Shown here: in pieces, positions 4,497 to 18,149 of the stretch
Layout of the letters: each line of letters starts with the position of its first letter
How positions within the stretch are numbered: the first letter of the stretch is position 1
Origin: Promethearchaeota archaeon
Lineage (GTDB): Archaea; Asgardarchaeota; Lokiarchaeia; Sigyniarchaeales; SOKP01
NCBI GenBank assembly: GCA_030599585.1
Contig: JAUVNS010000013.1
Location: 32,001 to 96,000 of the forward strand
Length of the DNA stretch: 64,000 nucleotides
Reading direction: 5' to 3'
Notes under the pieces: generated by a model
Told to the model about the DNA's origin: nothing
Databases searched by the model: none
The model's input: only the letters and a program-made list of their open reading frames with translations
Program-made: the position numbers and the translations under genes

Positions 4497-4599
4497 ACTA
4501 TATAATTCACTTATTTATGAATTTAAAATACATTTAATATCAATAATGACTTTTTTCAAATAAATTTAATATAAAATTAAAATAAAGTAGAACTAAATT

Positions 4600-5268
4600 A
4601 TGAAATATTTCTTAGATAGTGCCAAAATAGACGAAATTAAATATGCTTTAGAAAATTGGGGAATTGATGGCGTAACATCCAATCCGAAACATATCAAAAG
4701 TTCGGGCAAATCTTTCTATAGCGTAATAAAAGAATTTGCTGAAGAGTTCAAAGACATTAATTTTCCAATTTCCGTTGAGATTAACCCGCACATAGTTAAT
4801 TCAAAAGAAATGGTAGCTTCAGCGAAAGATATTGCTAAATTATCATCTAATTTTGTCATTAAAATCCCTTGTACAGAGCAAGGATTAATTGCTACTAAAA
4901 AATTAGTGGAAGCAAAGATAAAAGTAAATGTTACCTTAGTTTTCACAACTTCGCAAGCGTTACAGGTAGGGAGAATTGGAGCAGCTTATTGCTCTCCTTT
5001 CATTGGGTGGCAAGAAAACTCTGGCGTCGATTGCGAGCTTTTAATCTCGGATATAATGCTACTCTATAATAATTATGATTTCGCCACAGAAGTTATAGTA
5101 GCTGCTGTACGAAACGCCAAGCAAATAGTTGAAGCAGGTCGTTTTGGAGCAAATATTGTTACTGCGGGATTCCAAGTTTATAAAGATAGTTTTGAGCATC
5201 CCTTTACTGATAAAGGCTTAAAAATTTTTCAAGATGCATGGGATGATACGGAACTCGGAACATTATAA
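4600..5268 (+). CDS. sqvA: Transaldolase family protein; probable 6-deoxy-6-sulfofructose transaldolase (SqvA/SftT-like)
   Basis: FLDSA, GVTSNP, Schiff-base VIKIP, NVTLVF, SPFIGW, AAVRN. The segments ENWGIDGVT, FPISVEINPH, KLSSNFVIKIPCTE and GWQENSG closely match the Bacillus SqvA sequence as I recall it. Adjacent to an isomerase and a YihQ-like gene. Confidence 0.75.
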   Translation: MKYFLDSAKIDEIKYALENWGIDGVTSNPKHIKSSGKSFYSVIKEFAEEFKDINFPISVEINPHIVNSKEMVASAKDIAKLSSNFVIKIPCTEQGLIATKKLVEAKIKVNVTLVFTTSQALQVGRIGAAYCSPFIGWQENSGVDCELLISDIMLLYNNYDFATEVIVAAVRNAKQIVEAGRFGANIVTAGFQVYKDSFEHPFTDKGLKIFQDAWDDTELGTL

Positions 5269-5277
5269 AACTAATCA

Positions 5278-6609
5278 GTGAGGATATGTAAATTGAAACA
5301 AAAAATTTGCGTTGGTATCGTTTGTTTAGCTCGAAAAACCTTCGATTATAAAGCAGCTGAAGAAATTTACAGCAAAATTAACGAGGATTTAAAGAATAAA
5401 GAACAAGTTCAATGGGAAATCATCCCGGATTTGCTTATCGAAGTAGAAGACGCTCAAGACGCGGCTCACACATTAGTTTCCAAAGAAATTGATGCTTTAG
5501 TATGTATTAGTGGGACTTTCGCATTAGGACATTTAATTTTAGAACTAAATAAAGTTATCAAAAAACCAATTTTATTATGGGGATTAGAAGAATTACCTTA
5601 TGACGGTGGAAAAATTCGGCTTAATTCTGTGTGTGGGATTAACTTAAATGCAAGTAATCTGTATAAAGCGGGTGTTAAGAATTACCAAGTTGTAATTGGC
5701 AACCAAATTGATGATGATTGGTTGAATGCAATTCGTATCGTTAAAGCTTTTTCTACAAATCGCATAGGAATTATTGGCTATAGAGCTAAAGGATTTTTTA
5801 ACTTAGATGTAGATGAATTGGATTTGTATAAGCAGGTGGGAGTTCTCGTTGATCATTTCGAGTTAAATGAGATTTACAACTATGAAGTTAACCAAGATAA
5901 AATAGAAGAAAGGGTACAGCAAATTAATTCGATTTTTGATGTATCTGACGTATCGGAACAACAAATACTTAAAGTTGCCGAGCTCACTACAAAATTTAAA
6001 GGGTTTATGAATAAACATCGATTAGATGCTCTCGCTATAAGATGTTGGCCAGAGTTCGCCGGAAATTTTGGCATTTCGCCATGTGCTGCGATGTCAATTT
6101 TACAATCAGAGGATAGAATTTTGACATGCGAAGGCGATTTGTTAGGATCTCTTTCAATGTTAGCTCATCAAGCGATAGGTGGTGAAACTCCTTTCTTAGC
6201 TGATTTTTCGCAAGTAGATATAAAAGAAAACTTCGGACTTCTGTGGCATTGCGGCGTTGCAGCATGTAATTTGTGGGATGGAAAGTGCATAAGATCGTTA
6301 GATACTTATTTTGCAGGGGGAAAAGGGGTAACAGCTGATTTTGTAATGAAATCTGGAGAGATTTCAATGCTTAGAATTGATTATACACCCGGAGAATATA
6401 GAATATTTTTACAGAGAGCGAGGGGTATCCCAATGGATAAGGATCTAAAGGGAACCTATGTTAAAGTAAGATTTGAAGATAATGTAAAGGATGTTCTGGA
6501 TAAAATTATTCAGAATGGAATAGCTCATCATGTATCTATTGTTTACGGAGAATATATAAAACCTTTAGAGATTTTTGCAAAGTTAAAAGGATGGAATATA
6601 ATAAAATAA
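5278..6609 (+). CDS. sqvD: L-fucose/L-arabinose isomerase-fold protein; probable sulfoquinovose isomerase (SqvD/SftI-like); start may be TTG at 5293
   Basis: AIRCWPEF, CEGD, WHCG and HHVSIVYG motifs of the FucI/AraA superfamily; RKTFD and RLNS motifs; about 440 aa; lies between the transaldolase and the GH31 gene. Confidence 0.65.
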   Translation: MRICKLKQKICVGIVCLARKTFDYKAAEEIYSKINEDLKNKEQVQWEIIPDLLIEVEDAQDAAHTLVSKEIDALVCISGTFALGHLILELNKVIKKPILLWGLEELPYDGGKIRLNSVCGINLNASNLYKAGVKNYQVVIGNQIDDDWLNAIRIVKAFSTNRIGIIGYRAKGFFNLDVDELDLYKQVGVLVDHFELNEIYNYEVNQDKIEERVQQINSIFDVSDVSEQQILKVAELTTKFKGFMNKHRLDALAIRCWPEFAGNFGISPCAAMSILQSEDRILTCEGDLLGSLSMLAHQAIGGETPFLADFSQVDIKENFGLLWHCGVAACNLWDGKCIRSLDTYFAGGKGVTADFVMKSGEISMLRIDYTPGEYRIFLQRARGIPMDKDLKGTYVKVRFEDNVKDVLDKIIQNGIAHHVSIVYGEYIKPLEIFAKLKGWNIIK

Positions 6610-6626
6610 CAAACTAAGGGCTATTT

Positions 6627-8600
6627 ATGTTAGAATTTAAAGAATTAGATAATGGTTTTAAGTTACTGTTTAAGAATTATTTATTCTTAACGCATAGTCA
6701 AGATAATCCTTGTTTCAAAATAGGAAAAGGGAAAGCAAGTTATAAAATACATCATGGTCATTTTAAAATTAGGGAAAAAGAATTAACTGAAATTCCTTTA
6801 AAAAACTTCAATATTTGTTCTAAGGATGAAAGCAAAGTAATTATAGAGTTCATTTCTGGAGAGGAAAAATTAAAAGTCACCTTTTTTGTGGAAAAAGATC
6901 ACTTTAAGATGCACTTTGATTGTCCAAATTCAGAAATTAATCGGTTTTGGATGAAATTGCAAGCTAAAACAGATGAAGCGATTCATGGTTGTGGAGAACA
7001 ATTTTCAGAAGTTAATTTAAGGGGTAAAGAAGTTCCTTTATGGGTTGAGGAGCAAGGAGTAGGACGAGGAGATCCACCAATTACTGGAGATTGGTATACT
7101 ACGTATCATCCACAACCTACTTTTGTGTCTTCTCAGAACTATTTCTGTCACTGTGCAAGCACAAGTTATGCGAAGTTCAATTTCATTGAAAAGAATTACC
7201 ATGAATTATATATTTGGAGCGTACCTAAAGAAATCACATTTGGTAAATTTGATTCAGCTCTTGAAACTGTAAGTAACCTTTCAAAGTTGTTAGGATTACA
7301 ACCCATATTACCCGATTGGGTGTACGATGGGGTTTGGTTAGGAATTCAAGGCGGAAAAGACATTGTAGAACAAAAAGTACAGAAATGCTTAGAAAAAAAA
7401 GTTAAAATTGCGGCAGTGTGGTGCCAAGATTGGCAAGGAATACACATGCAAGGCGCCCAGAAGAGGTTGATTTGGAACTGGGAATACGACGAGGATTTAT
7501 ACCCCGATTTACCGTCCTATATAAAAAGCTTAAATGGTAGAGGTATAAAATATCTTGGATATAATAATTCTATGCTAGCAAAAGGAGGTGAACAGTACAA
7601 CGACGCCCTCAACAAAGATTTATGTGTTAAAGATAAAAACGGAAACCAATACAAGATAATCACTGACACTGGGGAAAAATCTATGCTTGATCTTAGCAAT
7701 CCAAATGCACTCCTATGGTTTAAAGAAATTATAAAAGAAAATATGATAAAGATTGGATTGTCAGGATGGATGGCTGATTATGGAGAATATCTACCTATTG
7801 ATGCAGTACTATATTCTGGTGAAAGTCCCGAAACTTTTCACAATAAATACCCTGTAATATTTGCTAAAGTTAATTTAGAAGCAATACAAGAAACGAGAAA
7901 AGAAGGAGAAATTGTATTTTTCACTAGAGCCGGTTATTCAAATATATCAAGATACACAACTTCAGTTTGGGCAGGCGATCAGTTAATAGATTGGAGTTTG
8001 GGTGATGGTTTAGGAACTGTTATTCCAGCAGGTATTTCTATTGGAATCTGTGGGATAGGGTATTACCATTTTGATATTGGCGGATTTCACAGTCTCGAAA
8101 ATTATATTCGAACTAAAGAAATGTTTATGCGTTGGACAGAGGCAAGCGTTTTTACGATGGTTATGCGTACTCATGAAAGTATAAAACCATTTGATAATTT
8201 ACAATTTGATTACGATGAAGAAACGCTTGAGCATTTCGCTAAAATGATAGACATACACGTTCAGCTTAAACCATATTTAAAACATCTCTCTGACGAATAC
8301 CAGAAAAAGGGGATATCGCCATTCAGAGGGTGTTTTTTACATTATGAAAACGATCATGAATTGCATAATCTCAAATACCAGTACTTACTTGGTTCTGAAT
8401 TACTGATAGCTCCCGTAATTAAGCAAGATAAAAAAAAATGGGAAATATATTTTCCTGACGATGTTTGGATTCATATTTGGACAGGAAAAGAGTACCTTAA
8501 AGGATGGAACAATGTAGATGCCCCTATTGGGCAACCACCCGTTTTTTACAGAAAAAATTCCAGCTTCAAAAATCTTTTCCAGACTTTTAGGGAGTACTAA
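6627..8600 (+). CDS. yihQ: GH31 alpha-glycosidase, sulfoquinovosidase (YihQ) type
   Basis: EQGVGR, PQPTFVSS, LGIQGG, QDW, KRLIWNW (sulfonate-binding R and W), GWMADYGEYLP (nucleophile Asp), WAGDQ (acid/base Asp), MRTHE. Confidence 0.8.
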   Translation: MLEFKELDNGFKLLFKNYLFLTHSQDNPCFKIGKGKASYKIHHGHFKIREKELTEIPLKNFNICSKDESKVIIEFISGEEKLKVTFFVEKDHFKMHFDCPNSEINRFWMKLQAKTDEAIHGCGEQFSEVNLRGKEVPLWVEEQGVGRGDPPITGDWYTTYHPQPTFVSSQNYFCHCASTSYAKFNFIEKNYHELYIWSVPKEITFGKFDSALETVSNLSKLLGLQPILPDWVYDGVWLGIQGGKDIVEQKVQKCLEKKVKIAAVWCQDWQGIHMQGAQKRLIWNWEYDEDLYPDLPSYIKSLNGRGIKYLGYNNSMLAKGGEQYNDALNKDLCVKDKNGNQYKIITDTGEKSMLDLSNPNALLWFKEIIKENMIKIGLSGWMADYGEYLPIDAVLYSGESPETFHNKYPVIFAKVNLEAIQETRKEGEIVFFTRAGYSNISRYTTSVWAGDQLIDWSLGDGLGTVIPAGISIGICGIGYYHFDIGGFHSLENYIRTKEMFMRWTEASVFTMVMRTHESIKPFDNLQFDYDEETLEHFAKMIDIHVQLKPYLKHLSDEYQKKGISPFRGCFLHYENDHELHNLKYQYLLGSELLIAPVIKQDKKKWEIYFPDDVWIHIWTGKEYLKGWNNVDAPIGQPPVFYRKNSSFKNLFQTFREY

Positions 8601-8607
8601 TTTTTTT

Positions 8608-8633
8608 TAATACTATACAATGGTATAGTATTA
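8608..8633. terminator. Hairpin between convergent genes, likely terminator
   Basis: TAATACTATAC-AATG-GTATAGTATTA: perfect 11-bp stem with 4-nt loop, directly after a T8 run following the yihQ stop. Confidence 0.5.
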
Positions 8634-8695: not shown

Positions 8696-11600
8696 TTAAT
8701 TATTTAATTTTAGGTTTTTTCTTTTCAGAAGGATTATCGAAATTCCAACTGAAAATAGAATTAGCAGTAGTGGGCTATAACCAGGTATTTCTGTTGTTGG
8801 ATCAGTCAAGTTAAAGATTTCAAAATATTCACTATCATCAAAAGTTCCAGGATATTCCGCATCACTTATTCTTATTTGATATAAATCAGAACTTTCTAAA
8901 AGAAGAGATATCTCCCAGCTAAACTCACCATCATTAGGGGTGCTAGGATCGATTATTGCTACGAATGTCCCATTCTTATAAAGATCAATTCTTACGCCTG
9001 CAATATTTCCCTCTGAATTCCAATAGACATCTTTAGATAATCCAGCTAGCCAAATGCTAGAATTATCAGGTGTAGTAACATTAATGGATGCGATGTAGAA
9101 AGTAGGATCGTAAAGTATTAAGTTTTCTAGTAATCTAGTATAGTTTTTATTATGGTTCCATTCCAGTGGTTGATTAGTTGCTATGAAAAAGCCATTTCCG
9201 AATTCAAATTCAACGAGCACAGGATTCAATGTATTTCCATCGAGTAATATTTCTTTTGCCCCTACAGGATAAGTATTATAGTATCCATGTGACGAATACA
9301 ACCAATTATCCAATTCGTCGTCTTCAATTAACGAAGGAGCCAGTAATACGGGGTGGTGTTGCAGATTTATAGAAACATTCTGAATAGTGGTAAAAGTTTT
9401 ATTTAATCCCCCTGGCAACAAGTATGTTTCATTCCAATAGCCCAAAGCAGAACCTCCATCAGCAGTTGAAAGCATTATTATGCCTCCATTAGCAACATAA
9501 GATTCAAACCAAGCAGTGTTAGTAACCAACCTATCATAGAACAATTGACTCTGATCTGAAGAAATTACTACTTTTTGATAAGAGGATAAATCTACCACGC
9601 CCATATCTGACGAGTTATACATCATATACGAAAGATCATTATCAACCAGTATTGGTTCAGTTACATTTAGACCCCAAGGAGCTCCATCCTGAAAAATAGC
9701 TACAGGACCAGTGATAGGTTCGAATGTTATATCAAGGTAAAAATACAGATAGTCGTCGTCTCCACGCCAGTTTATATAATCAACTTGAGAATCCATTACA
9801 AATGTAGGATGGGATACATTTACAGTCCACCACCCTATTAGCAATCCAGTTATGTTATAGAACCCAGAGCTATCAGTAAATCCCTCATCAACTAATTCTC
9901 CACTTGTAGTATTAAAGCACCTAACATAAGCGTCTGGAATAGGATTGTAGTTATATGCATCATACACTCTTACTTCGATCCATCCAGGAGGTTTAAGTTC
10001 CAGGTAAAATGTGATGTAGTCGTCGTCCCCGTTCCAATTGATGTAATTATCTTTAGAATCGCCACCGTAATCCGAATGGGAAACCTCTATGGTATACCAA
10101 CCAATGTATAATCCTGTTACATTAAATATCCCAGAATTGTCAGTATATCCACTCGTAAAGTATGTTCCATTCAAGTAGTTACAAACAACGAGCACATTCT
10201 CAATGGGGAGTAGCGTATCGTCATCTTTCACTGTAACTTCGATATAACCACTATCAGGTGGCATCTCGTCTAAATAGTAAGTCAAGTAATCGTCATCTCC
10301 AGCCCAATTAATATAGGTTTGTTTAGTTTGTCCATGATATCCGTTTCTTGTGACTTCAACAGAGTACCAACCTATTGTTAAGCCGGTAACTTTATAGAAT
10401 CCTGAACTATCCGTATATCCTGTATCGATGACTAAACTCGATGTTACATTAGTAACTTCTACATATGCACTTGAAATTCCTAAATATGAAACCGAATCAA
10501 ATACATTTACATCAATATATCCACTATCTGGAGGTAAGACATCAAGATAAAACGTAAGATAGTCGTCGTCACCTCTCCAATTTATATAATTTGACCTAGA
10601 TTGTTCAGCATACCCTACATGAGAGACATTAACAACATACCACCCAATAACCAGTCCAGTTACGTTATAAAATCCTGAACTGTCAGTGAATCCGAAACCA
10701 TGGAAAGTTCCATTATCGTGCCAAACATCCACACGAACGCTCGGTTTTGGTCCTCCTGTTTCATTGTATACCCTTACTTCTATGTAGCCACTATCAACAG
10801 GTTTTTGAACTAAGAAAAAGGTCAGATAATCGTCATCGTAATTCCAGTTAATATAATTTTGCTTCGTTTGTGTAGCATACCCTACTTTTGATACAGTCAC
10901 CTCATACCATCCAATCCACAGCCCTGTAGCATTATAGAACCCCGCACCATTAGTATATCCCGTTTGGATCACCAGACCCGAGGACATATTAACAACTTGG
11001 ACATAAGCACTAACGATGGGATTAGATGTAGAACTATCCTTAACATTCACTTCGATCCAACTTGAATCAGGTGCTTGAGGAACTAAGTAAAAGTAAAGGT
11101 AGTCGTCATCATAGCCTTTAGCAAGATTGTGAATGGTGTTGAATTTAGTTTGAGGCACATAACCATTTTTAGTCACTTTTACATCGTAACTTCCAACAGC
11201 TAAGTTGGTAATGTTGTAAAATCCGTTACTATCAGTATATCCCGAATCAACAAGAGTCGTAGTTCCAGCTTCGTAGCATTTAACATAAGCGCTTGAAAGG
11301 TAAACGGATGTATCACTATCTCTTACTCGTACTTCTATATAACTAATGTCGGGATTTAGTCCAGTTACAGTGACTGGTGTGCTATGATGACCCTTGTTAT
11401 TCCCTTCGTCGAATTCGTCCACGTTATCGTTTTTATCAATAATCCAACCAATGTAATAAGATCCACCTGGAATATCTGGAAAGGTTCCAACCCAAGTCGC
11501 AGCGTCTGTTCCGAAAGCGGGAGTTGATTCTGCTGAACTTGTTCCAATATAGTAATCCGATGTTGAAATGTAATCGTTTGTTGAGGCATAGTAATGAACA

Positions 11601-12895
11601 TAATAAGTACCAGAAGAAGCTGTTCCAACATTTCGAATATTACTATCTATATCAATACTGTCAACTCCGGCTGTAACCGTATAATCGTTAACAGCTGAAC
11701 CACCGTTGTCTATTAAATCGGCTTTATCTGTAGGAGCAGAATCCGCAGCTAACCAAGTAAAAATTCTATCATACTTATCAGTATTTAGTCTAGTCCCATA
11801 GTTTGCATCTGGATTTCCAGGACCATATGCATGCGTAGTCATTATGTATCGAGATCCACTTTCATATCTCCATACTGGTCCTCCACTCTCTCCAGGCCCA
11901 GTATCGGCCCAGTAAAAGTGATTATTGGTGGTAGCACCATCTCCATTATTGTCGTCCCATACTAAACGGTTACCACTCGCAAAATCACCCGGATAACCCG
12001 CGACATTCATAAGTTGGTCATATATTGCGCTTCCCGAACCAGCAGTCATTCGTCCCATCCAACCTGTAAAACTGCCAATATTTCGATCAAGAGTAAGAAC
12101 GGCCCAATCGTGTTGTGCGCTTCCACTTACTGTCCATCCCGTATAGGATCGCATATTTGTAACCCATGCAGAGCCATATGGATCAGAGGGTGTATCCGAA
12201 GTGTCCATTGCAGCAACTACCTCTATATTTGTGGCCCATCCTTCATTGGGACCATCACGTAAATAAGCACAGTGGCCCGCCGTTAAAATGTGAAAATTAT
12301 CGATCACTGCTCCTGAACCAGAATAAGTGCCACCCCAAGGAGCTGACATGTATAATTTAACTATGGTTCTCCATGGAAATACGTTTTGATTTGTGATGAC
12401 TGATCGTTGATCTCCAGGTGGGTTATCCGTAACTGCTTCAGCCCCACCTCCAGCCAGAAGTCCAGCATATGGTTCAACTTTCATAATTTCTGCAGAAGAT
12501 TCAGGTTTAGGAGTGAATTGTGGAGTAGTTATAGTCTCTATTCCAGTTAAAGCGTTATATGAGGCAGTTTCAATGCCGCCTACGCCTGATTCACTATCGT
12601 ATGGATTATATATCAATGTTTCACCAACAGGCTTCCATTCAAAGACGTTCCTATCGTAAGTTGATTCAGGGTTTTCTTCACCATAAAAATCTAGTTCATT
12701 ATATTGTTCATTTATTACAAATTCCTCGTCAATCGAGGATTGATCTGAATCAAAATTACCATCTAACTCTATAATATCCTCACTTTGTTCATCAAAAGGA
12801 TTGAAAGTTATAGCACTCGAAAAGAAAGATATAATCAGAAGTCCTAAGAAAATCAAAGATATAGCTTGTGTTGATTTGTTTTTTTTAATTAACAT
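8696..12895 (-). CDS. Secreted, membrane-anchored trypsin-like (glutamyl endopeptidase/V8-type) serine protease with CARDB-like domain, six beta-sandwich repeats and Loki-CTERM-type anchor
   Basis: N-terminal signal/TM segment; triad motifs LTAGHC, QHDWAV, GESGGP; CARDB-like NIRNVGT...VDEFDEGNN; C-terminal EIPGY + hydrophobic helix + KRK. Confidence 0.85.
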   Translation of the reverse strand: MLIKKNKSTQAISLIFLGLLIISFFSSAITFNPFDEQSEDIIELDGNFDSDQSSIDEEFVINEQYNELDFYGEENPESTYDRNVFEWKPVGETLIYNPYDSESGVGGIETASYNALTGIETITTPQFTPKPESSAEIMKVEPYAGLLAGGGAEAVTDNPPGDQRSVITNQNVFPWRTIVKLYMSAPWGGTYSGSGAVIDNFHILTAGHCAYLRDGPNEGWATNIEVVAAMDTSDTPSDPYGSAWVTNMRSYTGWTVSGSAQHDWAVLTLDRNIGSFTGWMGRMTAGSGSAIYDQLMNVAGYPGDFASGNRLVWDDNNGDGATTNNHFYWADTGPGESGGPVWRYESGSRYIMTTHAYGPGNPDANYGTRLNTDKYDRIFTWLAADSAPTDKADLIDNGGSAVNDYTVTAGVDSIDIDSNIRNVGTASSGTYYVHYYASTNDYISTSDYYIGTSSAESTPAFGTDAATWVGTFPDIPGGSYYIGWIIDKNDNVDEFDEGNNKGHHSTPVTVTGLNPDISYIEVRVRDSDTSVYLSSAYVKCYEAGTTTLVDSGYTDSNGFYNITNLAVGSYDVKVTKNGYVPQTKFNTIHNLAKGYDDDYLYFYLVPQAPDSSWIEVNVKDSSTSNPIVSAYVQVVNMSSGLVIQTGYTNGAGFYNATGLWIGWYEVTVSKVGYATQTKQNYINWNYDDDYLTFFLVQKPVDSGYIEVRVYNETGGPKPSVRVDVWHDNGTFHGFGFTDSSGFYNVTGLVIGWYVVNVSHVGYAEQSRSNYINWRGDDDYLTFYLDVLPPDSGYIDVNVFDSVSYLGISSAYVEVTNVTSSLVIDTGYTDSSGFYKVTGLTIGWYSVEVTRNGYHGQTKQTYINWAGDDDYLTYYLDEMPPDSGYIEVTVKDDDTLLPIENVLVVCNYLNGTYFTSGYTDNSGIFNVTGLYIGWYTIEVSHSDYGGDSKDNYINWNGDDDYITFYLELKPPGWIEVRVYDAYNYNPIPDAYVRCFNTTSGELVDEGFTDSSGFYNITGLLIGWWTVNVSHPTFVMDSQVDYINWRGDDDYLYFYLDITFEPITGPVAIFQDGAPWGLNVTEPILVDNDLSYMMYNSSDMGVVDLSSYQKVVISSDQSQLFYDRLVTNTAWFESYVANGGIIMLSTADGGSALGYWNETYLLPGGLNKTFTTIQNVSINLQHHPVLLAPSLIEDDELDNWLYSSHGYYNTYPVGAKEILLDGNTLNPVLVEFEFGNGFFIATNQPLEWNHNKNYTRLLENLILYDPTFYIASINVTTPDNSSIWLAGLSKDVYWNSEGNIAGVRIDLYKNGTFVAIIDPSTPNDGEFSWEISLLLESSDLYQIRISDAEYPGTFDDSEYFEIFNLTDPTTEIPGYSPLLLILFSVGISIILLKRKNLKLNN
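9730..11344 (-). repeat. Six tandem ~90-aa carboxypeptidase-regulatory-like repeats within the protease
   Basis: Each unit reads roughly (G/S)(Y/W)IEVxV...GYTDxxGFYNxTGLxIGWYxVxV...YINWxGDDDYLxFYL; six copies counted in the translation. Confidence 0.9.
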
Positions 12896-15270: not shown

Positions 15271-16566
15271 TTATAATTTGCTGGAAATTAGTCGTTCATC
15301 TTTTATTTTACCATTTAAAAGTGGGTCGTTAGTTTCTTTCATCCAATCTAGGAGTTTTTGCCTTAATACGAATAGGGTATTTTCATAGGTGGGATTATTG
15401 ACAAGATTATTAACCTCGTTTGGATCTTTCTCCAAGTCGTAAAGTTCTTCTTCAGCTCTCTTCATCTTTATTTTATCCTTTAGTTCTTGCCCAGATAACC
15501 CCCTCTCAATATCTAATGGTATTTGATACAGATATTCGCATGGCTCAAAATTGCGAATATATTTAAACGCTCTAGTTCTGACGCTCCTCAGAGGATCATA
15601 CATATCGTGATAATTTTTTTCTGTAAAGATTTCACTTCTAAAAGGGAGCGTAGTATCTTTTAGAACAGGTAGAAAGCTTTTCCCCTCAATTTTTTCAGGA
15701 ATTTGTGCTCCAATAAAATCTAACAATGTCGGCAAAAGATCAATATTGCTTATCATTTGTTTAAAGACTTGTCCACCATTAAATAATTTTTGATTAGGAC
15801 AGTTCATTACGAGTAGAATTTTTATTCCCGGATCATATAGCGTACATTTAGCTCTTGGGAAAGGGCTTCCATGATCGGTAGTATATATAAATAGCGTATT
15901 CTCTCTTAAACCAGTCCTTTCTAAAATTTCAATAATTTTTCCTATTATTTCATCTACAGGATTGATAATTCCATAATACAAACTAAGATCTTTACGAACC
16001 TTATCGTTGTCAGGTAGAAATGGAGGGACTTTTACGGAGTACGTATCGTTAGCTTGGCTCCATATAACAAAAGGTCTGTGTATTTCTATTGTACCGATAT
16101 TGAGAAAAAAGGGCTTTTCGTCATTTCTATGATTTTCTAGGAAACTTTCGTATTCACTAAACATTCTATTCGTATCGTATCTGTAATCTTTCATTCTTTT
16201 GCTAACAGTATCGTATCCTAATGTCTTGACATCTATCGCTTCATGTTGTAAACCAATTAAATGGGTTGAATAACCAGCCTCTCTGAGGTACATAGGAATA
16301 GTTCTATTTCTGGAGGGTAGAGACCAACCGCGATTCACCAACCCCATTAAACCATTTTGATGCGGATAAAGAGATGTTTGGATACTTCCTCGACTTGGTG
16401 AACATTGCGGTGCTGTACAAAAATAATTCGTAAATCGTATTCCGTCTTTAGCAAGTTTATCCAGATTAGGTGTTTTTAGGGAATTTGGTGTTGCAGGTGT
16501 ATTGTAACATTTAAGAAATTGACCTTGATCGTGCGTTATAAATAGTATTATGTTCGGTTTTTTCAA
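15271..16566 (-). CDS. Formylglycine-dependent sulfatase (S1 family; N-sulfoglucosamine sulfohydrolase-like)
   Basis: KPNIILFITHD, CSPSR, TTDHG, RAKCTLYDPG, IDLLPT, EELYDLEKDP. Confidence 0.9.
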   Translation of the reverse strand: MKKPNIILFITHDQGQFLKCYNTPATPNSLKTPNLDKLAKDGIRFTNYFCTAPQCSPSRGSIQTSLYPHQNGLMGLVNRGWSLPSRNRTIPMYLREAGYSTHLIGLQHEAIDVKTLGYDTVSKRMKDYRYDTNRMFSEYESFLENHRNDEKPFFLNIGTIEIHRPFVIWSQANDTYSVKVPPFLPDNDKVRKDLSLYYGIINPVDEIIGKIIEILERTGLRENTLFIYTTDHGSPFPRAKCTLYDPGIKILLVMNCPNQKLFNGGQVFKQMISNIDLLPTLLDFIGAQIPEKIEGKSFLPVLKDTTLPFRSEIFTEKNYHDMYDPLRSVRTRAFKYIRNFEPCEYLYQIPLDIERGLSGQELKDKIKMKRAEEELYDLEKDPNEVNNLVNNPTYENTLFVLRQKLLDWMKETNDPLLNGKIKDERLISSKL

Positions 16567-16724: not shown

Positions 16725-18149
16725 TTGGCTAATATTATGGAAAAAGATGTTTTAGATATTAAACATAGTAAGTTGGGTATGGCGTCTTACGGTTTCAACT
16801 CCTTTTCTAGAGAAATGCTTAGAATTGCCTTTACAACTTTTGGGTTCTTTTTTTATGAGTCTGAACTAGGGTTAAATGTGTGGTTGATATTTTTAGCATA
16901 TTTAATTTTTGCGATTTATAATATGTTTAACGACCCGCTTGTTGGATACTTAACAAATAAGCCCTTCAAGTTTACTAAAAAATGGGGCAGAAGATTTCCC
17001 TGGATTTTACTTGGTGGGCTGCCTTGGGGTTTTACATATATGCTTATATTTACGCCACCAACTTATGATGCTGTAGGAGGTGCGTGGATTTTATTCGCTT
17101 GGCTTCTCTTTACTACGTGTTTGTTTGATACATTTCACTCAATCTTATTTGTTAACTTTCAGTCGTTATTCGTTGATAAATATCGATCAGTTCAGGAGCG
17201 TAGAACTGCCAGTGGTATATATATTATGATAGGCGTTATAGGGGTTGCTTTAGGCTCTATTCTACCACCTTTATTATTTCAAACTACAGAAGGTACAGTT
17301 ACAAACTACCCCTCTTTTGCTTTTCAAGGTCTGATAGTAGCTATTATTTCGTTTGTTGGTTTTGCGTTAGCTATACCAGGTTCACGCGAAGATCAAGTTA
17401 CAATTGATCTTTATTTGGCTTCACAAACGGGAGAACGAGAAAAAACTCCTTTTTTTAAAACCCTATGGACCGCATTAAAGCAGACGCCATTCGTTGCATT
17501 CATGATATTTTACCTACTCTACCAGACTTTAGTAGAAATGATGCAAGCTTCCGTCCTATACACGGTTAAATATTCCCTGAAAATGGACGACTCAGCCACG
17601 ACTCTAATATTTGCGGCATTTCTTATTGGAGTACTAGTTTCAACCCCCTTTTGGATTTATTATTCAAAGAAAGTCAAAAATAATAAAAAAGTAATGTTGA
17701 TTTCTGGTTTACTTCTGGCTGCTTTTACAATACCAATAACATTTTATAGAGACTACTGGTTAATAGTTTTTGAGATGTTATTATGGGGATTAGCTATGGG
17801 AGGTTTCTGGATAATGATATTCCCAGTATCTGCAGATGTAATCGATAACGCAGTAGTGGCAACAAAAAAACGCGAAGAAGGAGTTTATACGGGATTTCAA
17901 CAATTTTTTGGTAGGATGGGAATAATAATTCAAGCTCTCACATTTGCATTAATTCATGAGCTCACAGGTTTCGACGAAGCTTTAGGAACAGCTCAACCAG
18001 AATCGGCAATTTGGGGTATTCACTTTCATCAAGCTCTCATACCCGCGATCTTAGTTATTATAGGTGCTCTTGTCTTTTGGAAGTGGTATAAGTTAACTCC
18101 AGAAAAAGTGCTAGAAAATCAGGAAAAAATTAAAGAAATGGGGATATAA
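16725..18149 (+). CDS. MFS transporter, GPH/MelB (glycoside-pentoside-hexuronide) family
   Basis: NDPLVG...WGRRFPW, ADVID...REEGVY, about 12 TM segments. Confidence 0.85.
   Translation: MANIMEKDVLDIKHSKLGMASYGFNSFSREMLRIAFTTFGFFFYESELGLNVWLIFLAYLIFAIYNMFNDPLVGYLTNKPFKFTKKWGRRFPWILLGGLPWGFTYMLIFTPPTYDAVGGAWILFAWLLFTTCLFDTFHSILFVNFQSLFVDKYRSVQERRTASGIYIMIGVIGVALGSILPPLLFQTTEGTVTNYPSFAFQGLIVAIISFVGFALAIPGSREDQVTIDLYLASQTGEREKTPFFKTLWTALKQTPFVAFMIFYLLYQTLVEMMQASVLYTVKYSLKMDDSATTLIFAAFLIGVLVSTPFWIYYSKKVKNNKKVMLISGLLLAAFTIPITFYRDYWLIVFEMLLWGLAMGGFWIMIFPVSADVIDNAVVATKKREEGVYTGFQQFFGRMGIIIQALTFALIHELTGFDEALGTAQPESAIWGIHFHQALIPAILVIIGALVFWKWYKLTPEKVLENQEKIKEMGI

Follow-up and report, generated by a model that had tools for sequence, protein, structure and literature searches.

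The closest described counterparts of the gene cluster considered here belong to the sulfoglycolytic transaldolase (sulfo-TAL, or sulfo-SFT) pathway of bacteria, which acts on sulfoquinovose (SQ), a sulfur sugar abundant in the membranes of algae and plants that is produced at about 10 billion tonnes/year and sinks to anoxic sediments inhabited by Lokiarchaeia. Priestia and gut Firmicutes are the bacteria in which the pathway has been characterised, and it is predicted for a further five bacterial phyla (PMC7491151); a 2026 review records no characterised SQ pathway in archaea (PMC12890257), and literature searches, in which subscription journals are thinly covered, returned nothing relevant on sulfoglycolysis or transaldolase in Asgard or Loki archaea. 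We have analysed a stretch of 64,000 nucleotides (hereafter the window) from contig JAUVNS010000013.1 of a Promethearchaeota archaeon (assembly GCA_030599585.1), in which an earlier note, made from the sequence alone, had proposed a sulfo-TAL operon. The three genes concerned are present, intact and co-oriented on the + strand, as that note had claimed, and its reading is supported overall, save that no orthologue of an SLA (sulfolactaldehyde) reductase or dehydrogenase was found in the genome. The cluster is real and, judged by its genes, most likely sulfoglycolytic, a variant of a known pathway; we consider it probable that the three genes provide the catalytic core that would convert SQ to fructose-6-phosphate (F6P) and SLA. 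The genes are as follows.

4600..5268, + strand: predicted sulfofructose transaldolase, SqvA/SftT type, 222 amino acids (aa); identified by its match to the Bacillus megaterium enzyme (BmSF-TAL, 8bc3), residues, tree and dN/dS about 0.05-0.08
5293..6609 (frame open from 5278), + strand: AraA/FucI-fold aldose-ketose isomerase, candidate SQ isomerase, 438 aa; identified by NF048012 score, AlphaFold model, tree and conserved columns
6627..8600, + strand: YihQ-clade GH31, candidate sulfoquinovosidase (SQase), 657 aa; identified by PRK10426, scores to SQases in the PDB and a residue map to E. coli YihQ

The same co-oriented trio is found in Priestia megaterium DSM 1804 (sqv) and P. aryabhattai SOS1 (sftGITD), with a transaldolase 64% identical to the archaeal (P. 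megaterium protein), a YihQ-type GH31 at 43% and a PF02952-family isomerase. The present cluster differs from it in its archaeal host, in an isomerase of another clade (27% identical to Priestia SqvD), in a Phe at the Tyr508 position of GH31, and in lacking DUF4867, SLA dehydrogenase, importer, exporter and GntR regulator. The Eubacterium (Agathobacter) rectale sulfo-SFT cluster, which we retrieved through a GH31 matching PDB 6PNR, shares a transaldolase (52%) and GH31 (42%) and has an SftR orthologous to the reductase of other Asgard clusters, whereas its isomerase is only 24.5% identical, and its SftR, SftX, transporters and glycerol kinase are absent here. The nearest bacterial transaldolases (62-69%), along with isomerases of the same clade as ours (54-61%), are in uncharacterised gene clusters from Caloramator, from Clostridia and from Spirochaetota (L063, L064, L070, L073-L075, L087), which differ in carrying DUF4867 and/or transporters and regulators.

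The three open reading frames span 4600-5268 (222 aa), 5278-6609 (443 aa from a GTG) and 6627-8600 (657 aa), and match, in gene order, the families TAL_FSA, Fucose_iso_C (at the cut-off only) and GH31. The isomerase very probably starts instead at TTG 5293, which has a GAGG upstream at 5280-5283 and gives 438 aa, because its three closest relatives begin at the same position; the first intergenic gap is therefore 24 nt and not the 9 nt first described, the 17 nt of the second gap being unaffected. The motifs originally singled out (FPISVEINPH, GWxENSG, LGIQ, QDW, KRxxWNW and MRTHE) all occur in the translations. Comparison with three relatives gives a dN/dS of about 0.05-0.10 for each gene, indicating purifying selection.

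The host is a Promethearchaeia (Loki-type) archaeon, and its Asgard assignment holds because the closest homologues and the syntenic flanking genes are from Promethearchaeota and the three genes have a third-position GC content (GC3) of 0.26-0.28, the same as the genome mean (0.27). The genome is rated 100% complete with a bin contamination estimate of 8.9%, and this estimate, together with the bacterial type of the genes, might suggest that the contig is a bacterial contaminant; but homologues at 73-89% identity are present in dozens of Promethearchaeota assemblies, with one at 66% in a closed chromosome, and the synteny of the flanks in independent Asgard genomes refutes contamination, leaving it virtually no probability.

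The best solved relative of the transaldolase is BmSF-TAL (302 bits), against 156 bits for TalC and about 50 for Fsa, so that the resemblance to SqvA suggested at the outset is borne out, and a quick IQ-TREE run agrees, placing 34 Asgard copies and one SAR324 sequence in a single clade (SH-aLRT 97) among bacterial SqvA proteins and far from TalC. Residues D6, E61, K89, N111, S133 and W138 have been named in the sulfofructose transaldolase, and an E61Q change treated as aldolase-like (PMC11659671). The catalytic and sugar-orienting residues are kept in the archaeal protein (D6, E60, K88, N110 and S132, corresponding to D6, E61, K89, N111 and S133), W137 (= W138) takes the place of an Arg in TalC, and A169 and R171 are also retained; by our own reading of the alignment, the latter correspond to A170 and R172, which would be the partners of W138 in the WAR motif. 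Both W137 and R171 are invariant in 34/34 archaeal copies. On these alignments and the tree, we assign the protein as an SqvA/SftT orthologue.

Could it nonetheless be a housekeeping pentose-phosphate enzyme or a fructose-6-phosphate aldolase that lies among other sugar genes by coincidence? It is the single transaldolase found in the genome, and among 41 relatives the SqvA type (13 genomes) and TalC (8 genomes) were never found together. Transketolase was not found in the genome, however, using a search whose positive control was detected in 13/14 genomes, and it accompanies the SqvA type in 2/13 relatives and TalC in 7/8. With a sole transaldolase and no transketolase found, a pentose-phosphate role is therefore unlikely; moreover, Trp replaces the phosphate-binding Arg, Glu60 is retained as in transaldolases, and in relatives TalC is encoded in a different cluster, one that also holds transketolase subunits. 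A housekeeping role with coincidental gene order is thus highly improbable. That TalC cluster is conserved in this genus (L028-L035), where TalC is associated with split transketolase and heptose kinase-, isomerase- and phosphatase-like genes (judged from sequence starts only), and probably supplies heptose for glycosylation. A plasmid search with the transaldolase returned TalC-type matches only. SqvA-type transaldolases also occur in soil deltaproteobacterial and spirochaete metagenome-assembled genomes (L082, L083, L088, L092; 70-75% to Priestia) in a different conserved context, neither an isomerase nor an SQase lying within 8 kb.

The GH31 scores 793 bits against the NCBIfam YihQ-family model PRK10426 (cut-off 553) and 511-639 bits against solved SQases, other GH31 structures reaching at most 143 bits, and it matches YihQ (630 bits) rather than YicI (125 bits); neither it nor the transaldolase groups with non-YihQ GH31 enzymes or generic TalC/Fsa, respectively. 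Aligned with E. coli YihQ (PDB 5AED/5OHT; 43% identity), it keeps Q262, Q288, K300, R301, W304, D405, D472 and H537, and in its own numbering D384 is the nucleophile and D451 the acid/base, accompanied by Q241, Q267, R280, W283 and H516; one loop, around residues 160-175, is shortened by about 10 residues. The YihQ type first proposed thus stands as to family, the exception being one residue of the sulfonate pocket that is considered below.

For the isomerase the earlier assignment to SqvD/SftI fares less well: the AraA/FucI fold is confirmed and orthology to the characterised enzymes is not. The AlphaFold model (pLDDT 96.6) aligns with L-arabinose isomerases at a TM-score of about 0.85 and matches fucose isomerases too, and a PDB sequence search gave no match. 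E285, D309 and H418 are invariant and, by analogy with FucI, would be the Glu/Asp/His metal ligands of an enzyme that is probably Mn-dependent, as FucI is. The best NCBIfam model, SftI (NF048012), gives 241 bits where 700 would be needed. The protein falls in a clade of its own that has strong support. Bacterial members of that clade (48-61% identity; 55-61% in complete clusters) hold the same slot of sulfo-TAL clusters; in Caloramator, for example, an isomerase of this clade (55%) is accompanied by SftR, DUF4867, an intact YihQ and an exporter. The clade shares with the SftI/SqvD clades three invariant residues, T21, R114 and R255, which only 33-50% of other homologues have, and the motifs RKTFD and RLNS are common to the archaeal isomerase and Priestia SqvD. 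We regard the protein as presumably SqvD-like in function, from its context, and not as a member of SftI/SqvD by orthology.

The acquisition of these genes from bacteria, also part of the initial proposal, is consistent with the trees and is the simplest reading because of these and the patchy archaeal distribution. An approximately unbiased (AU) test does not reject a tree in which the bacterial sequences of the isomerase clade are monophyletic (p 0.275), so the direction of transfer is without statistical demonstration.

The distribution of the cluster among archaea points in the same direction as the individual proteins. An SqvA-type transaldolase is present in 24/91 genomes of the family and 17/301 of the phylum, 3 of them outside the order. 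For 34 archaeal transaldolases examined to a distance of 8 kb, we find the isomerase in 28 cases, the GH31 in 18, all three genes together in 17 (the synteny survey that had been suggested thus recovers the trio repeatedly), an SftR-type reductase in 7 and an AEC transporter in 9; DUF4867 occurs at 0/34 archaeal and 27/47 bacterial loci. Identity of the archaeal reductases to E. rectale SftR is 44-48%; they share its PVVKS motif and are restricted to genomes with the SqvA-type transaldolase. One locus of Ca. Lokiarchaeum ossiferum B35 holds the transaldolase, the isomerase, the transporter and a reductase whose annotation is 3-sulfolactaldehyde reductase, and a YihQ-type GH31 (53%) lies elsewhere in the genome. 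As a separate observation, a pair formed by an amidohydrolase and a 282-aa protein without a Pfam match lies directly upstream of the transaldolase in 9/34 archaeal loci (e.g. L040:5667-7292) and is not near the transaldolase in the present genome.

We infer the following route for the present archaeon, which would first have to take up the substrate. The GH31 would release SQ from alpha-SQ glycosides, and the isomerase would turn it into 6-deoxy-6-sulfofructose (SF). The transaldolase would form a Schiff base at Lys88 and move dihydroxyacetone from SF to glyceraldehyde-3-phosphate (GAP), yielding F6P and SLA. F6P would then enter glycolysis by way of phosphofructokinase and probably a class I aldolase, regenerating the GAP acceptor; the genome has a phosphofructokinase gene and four PF01791 (class I aldolase-family) genes, and a class II aldolase was not found in it. 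The most likely fate of SLA is oxidation, either by one of the nine aldehyde:ferredoxin oxidoreductases of the genome or by some generic aldehyde dehydrogenase, or else export, possibly by an AEC transporter encoded elsewhere in the genome.

The relatives offer a clue to the fate of SLA. Among the 24 transaldolase-positive genomes of the family, 3 have SftR, 9 others a particular oxidoreductase clade and 12, including the present genome, neither, and neither was found in the 67 transaldolase-negative ones; this survey of 91 family genomes scored at most 14 candidates in each. The oxidoreductase module consists of a tungsten-type aldehyde:ferredoxin oxidoreductase of a single clade (67-73% identity) and a 4Fe-4S subunit, after which a Lar_N-domain protein usually comes next, and in L042, L059 and G332 the module is between the transaldolase and the isomerase. 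The modules inside or near Asgard sulfo-TAL clusters are located as follows.

L042, 8769-11079: oxidoreductase module
L059, 10402-13999: oxidoreductase module
L155, 7956-12632: oxidoreductase module
L157, 12119-14367: oxidoreductase module

The association of oxidoreductase and transaldolase has a hypergeometric p of 2e-6, an overstatement because related genomes are not independent and no more than 14 candidates per genome were scored. The placement of the module and its mutual exclusivity with SftR suggest a ferredoxin-linked oxidation of SLA to sulfolactate; the same literature searches found nothing relevant linking SLA to aldehyde ferredoxin oxidoreductase.

Several observations weigh against a sulfo-TAL assignment of the present cluster. 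No transporter or regulator lies inside it. In the transaldolase, Arg30, which we take to be a member of an Arg-Trp-Arg triad in the sulfofructose enzyme, is replaced by Lys; Lys is also found at this position in Bacillus/Metabacillus clusters (L081, L084, L090, L093), and TalC has Thr/Ser. The isomerase has the low identities to SqvD and SftI given above, and an AU test rejects placing it with Bacillaceae SqvD (p 5e-87). The sulfonate pocket of E. coli YihQ is formed by Arg301, Trp304 and Tyr508, the last through a water-mediated contact (PMC8006165); in the archaeal GH31, Tyr508 is Phe (F487) and T509 is His, the solved SQases having Tyr at the aligned position. Among about 120 closest homologues, the pairs at positions 301 and 508 include Arg/Phe (48), Gln/Tyr (34), Gln/Phe (19) and Arg/Tyr (15), just 15 thus retaining both residues, and the Ca. 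L. ossiferum enzyme, with Gln/Phe, has lost both. Finally, the genome has no SftR orthologue (the best match is a 32% reductase without the PVVKS motif) and no SftD orthologue (best 27%, an aldehyde dehydrogenase), and DUF4867 (SqvB/SftX) gave no tblastn match with the Priestia protein, the family search for it having lacked a positive control.

The drift of the GH31 pocket, which appears to extend through the archaeal clade, is the chief ground for doubting that the enzyme is strictly specific for SQ, and raises the possibility that the cluster descends from sulfo-TAL but has shifted or broadened its substrate, with the same chemistry acting on a different hexose whose C6 is anionic or modified (such as a 6-sulfated sugar, by way of a nearby sulfatase) or on neutral alpha-glucosides. 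The uncharacterised clade of the isomerase would fit such a shift, as would the ability of SftI to interconvert F6P and glucose-6-phosphate (PMC7491151), the frequency of GH2 and GH4 glycosidases as neighbours and the presence of a sulfatase, in varying positions, within 8 kb of 10/34 archaeal and 0/47 bacterial transaldolases. We nevertheless think it unlikely: W137 and R171 of the transaldolase do not vary, SftR-type reductases accompany the archaeal cluster, the Arg301 to Gln change is found too in otherwise complete gut Firmicutes clusters, and the present GH31 retains K300, R301 and W304. The His following position 508 co-varies with Phe (58 Phe-His and 0 Tyr-His among the same homologues) and may compensate for it.

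The lack of an orthologue of SftR, SftD or the cluster-linked oxidoreductase in the genome (best 32-35%) could alternatively mean that the cluster is a truncated remnant, in which the aldehyde-processing gene has been lost, the pathway stalls at SLA and the other genes serve in side roles. This seems very unlikely, given that none of the three frames is interrupted and strong purifying selection acts on each, that the same three-gene form recurs in several relatives that are 95-100% complete (G011, G013, G024), and that half of the transaldolase-positive family genomes have neither enzyme. SLA in this genome appears to be without a dedicated enzyme of bacterial type, and the nine aldehyde:ferredoxin oxidoreductase paralogues share no more than 35% identity with the cluster-linked clade. 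More tentatively, Lokiarchaeia may ferment SQ through an archaeal variant of sulfo-TAL that combines a second, uncharacterised SQ isomerase clade with a tungsten-type oxidoreductase that would oxidise SLA in place of NAD-linked enzymes, dedicated and with a LarA-like partner in relatives, and a generic paralogue here.

If the cluster is active, Lokiarchaeia would be primary SQ degraders that supply C3 sulfonates to sulfite-respiring partners, and Asgard physiology would gain one sugar and a new type of cross-feeding; algal or cyanobacterial material could be the food source. The surprise is limited, since the core chemistry is already known. The archaeal variant, if true, would represent the first archaeal sulfoglycolysis and would bring a ferredoxin-linked end step not found in the literature searched. 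The cultured Ca. L. ossiferum B35, which has the genes, makes the idea testable, and the isomerase clade and the oxidoreductase link are pointers to further candidate sulfoglycolysis enzymes.

Other parts of the genome were examined for genes acting on SQ or on C3 sulfonates. Sulfo-EMP (YihS/T) and sulfo-TK gave no matches, and a UDP-SQ synthase-like motif was not found by a simple regular expression, a weak test. A split UxaA/SuyAB-like pair (96 and 395 aa; G000:C24:324400-325874) is head-to-head with an aldehyde:ferredoxin oxidoreductase (the whole arrangement spanning G000:C24:322438-325874; L126:10439-13875), and was not counted as evidence of desulfonation because it is present in 22/24 genomes of the genus regardless of SQ genes and is annotated as altronate dehydratase. 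None of five glycyl radical enzymes reached the cut-off for HpsG/HpfG, and two tandem Ldh_2 dehydrogenases (G000:C22:28650-31047) had L-sulfolactate dehydrogenase as their best model but scored 259-268 bits on it, below its cut-off of 500. The AEC-family transporter mentioned above (G000:C20:133266-134198; L127:7267-8199) groups with the exporters of Asgard sulfo-TAL clusters and adjoins a 3-keto-5-aminohexanoate cleavage-type gene; it is weak evidence because it is present in 16/24 genomes of the genus.

The cluster is flanked by a divergent M28 peptidase gene upstream and a convergent large secreted protease-like gene downstream, and two further features lie at its ends.

4533..4571, + strand: conserved AT-rich block upstream of the transaldolase, a possible archaeal promoter region that would also serve the divergent peptidase gene; near-identical in L037, L038 and L039
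8601..8633, + strand: T8 run after the stop codon (possible archaeal terminator), then an 11-bp hairpin; not conserved (sequence, folding against shuffles, relatives)

A sigma-70 promoter scan did no better than chance. The closing hairpin of the earlier note exists, with its 11-bp stem at 8608-8633, but it follows the T-run (8601-8608), is weak against shuffled sequences (z -1.86; 11/200 fold equally well), yielded no terminator call and is missing in the three closest relatives. The downstream gene (8696-12895, - strand) encodes a 1399-aa secreted trypsin-like protein with carboxypeptidase-regulatory repeats and a higher GC content (about 0.39), and is not at the corresponding position in the three closest relatives. 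Upstream, at 1-2508 of the window, are GH2 beta-mannosidase-like and GH4 genes, which are near the Asgard cluster in 8/34 and 6/34 loci, respectively. Further downstream are a sulfatase gene with a CSPSR motif (15271-16566, - strand) and, divergent from it, a GPH/MFS transporter gene (16725-18149, + strand).

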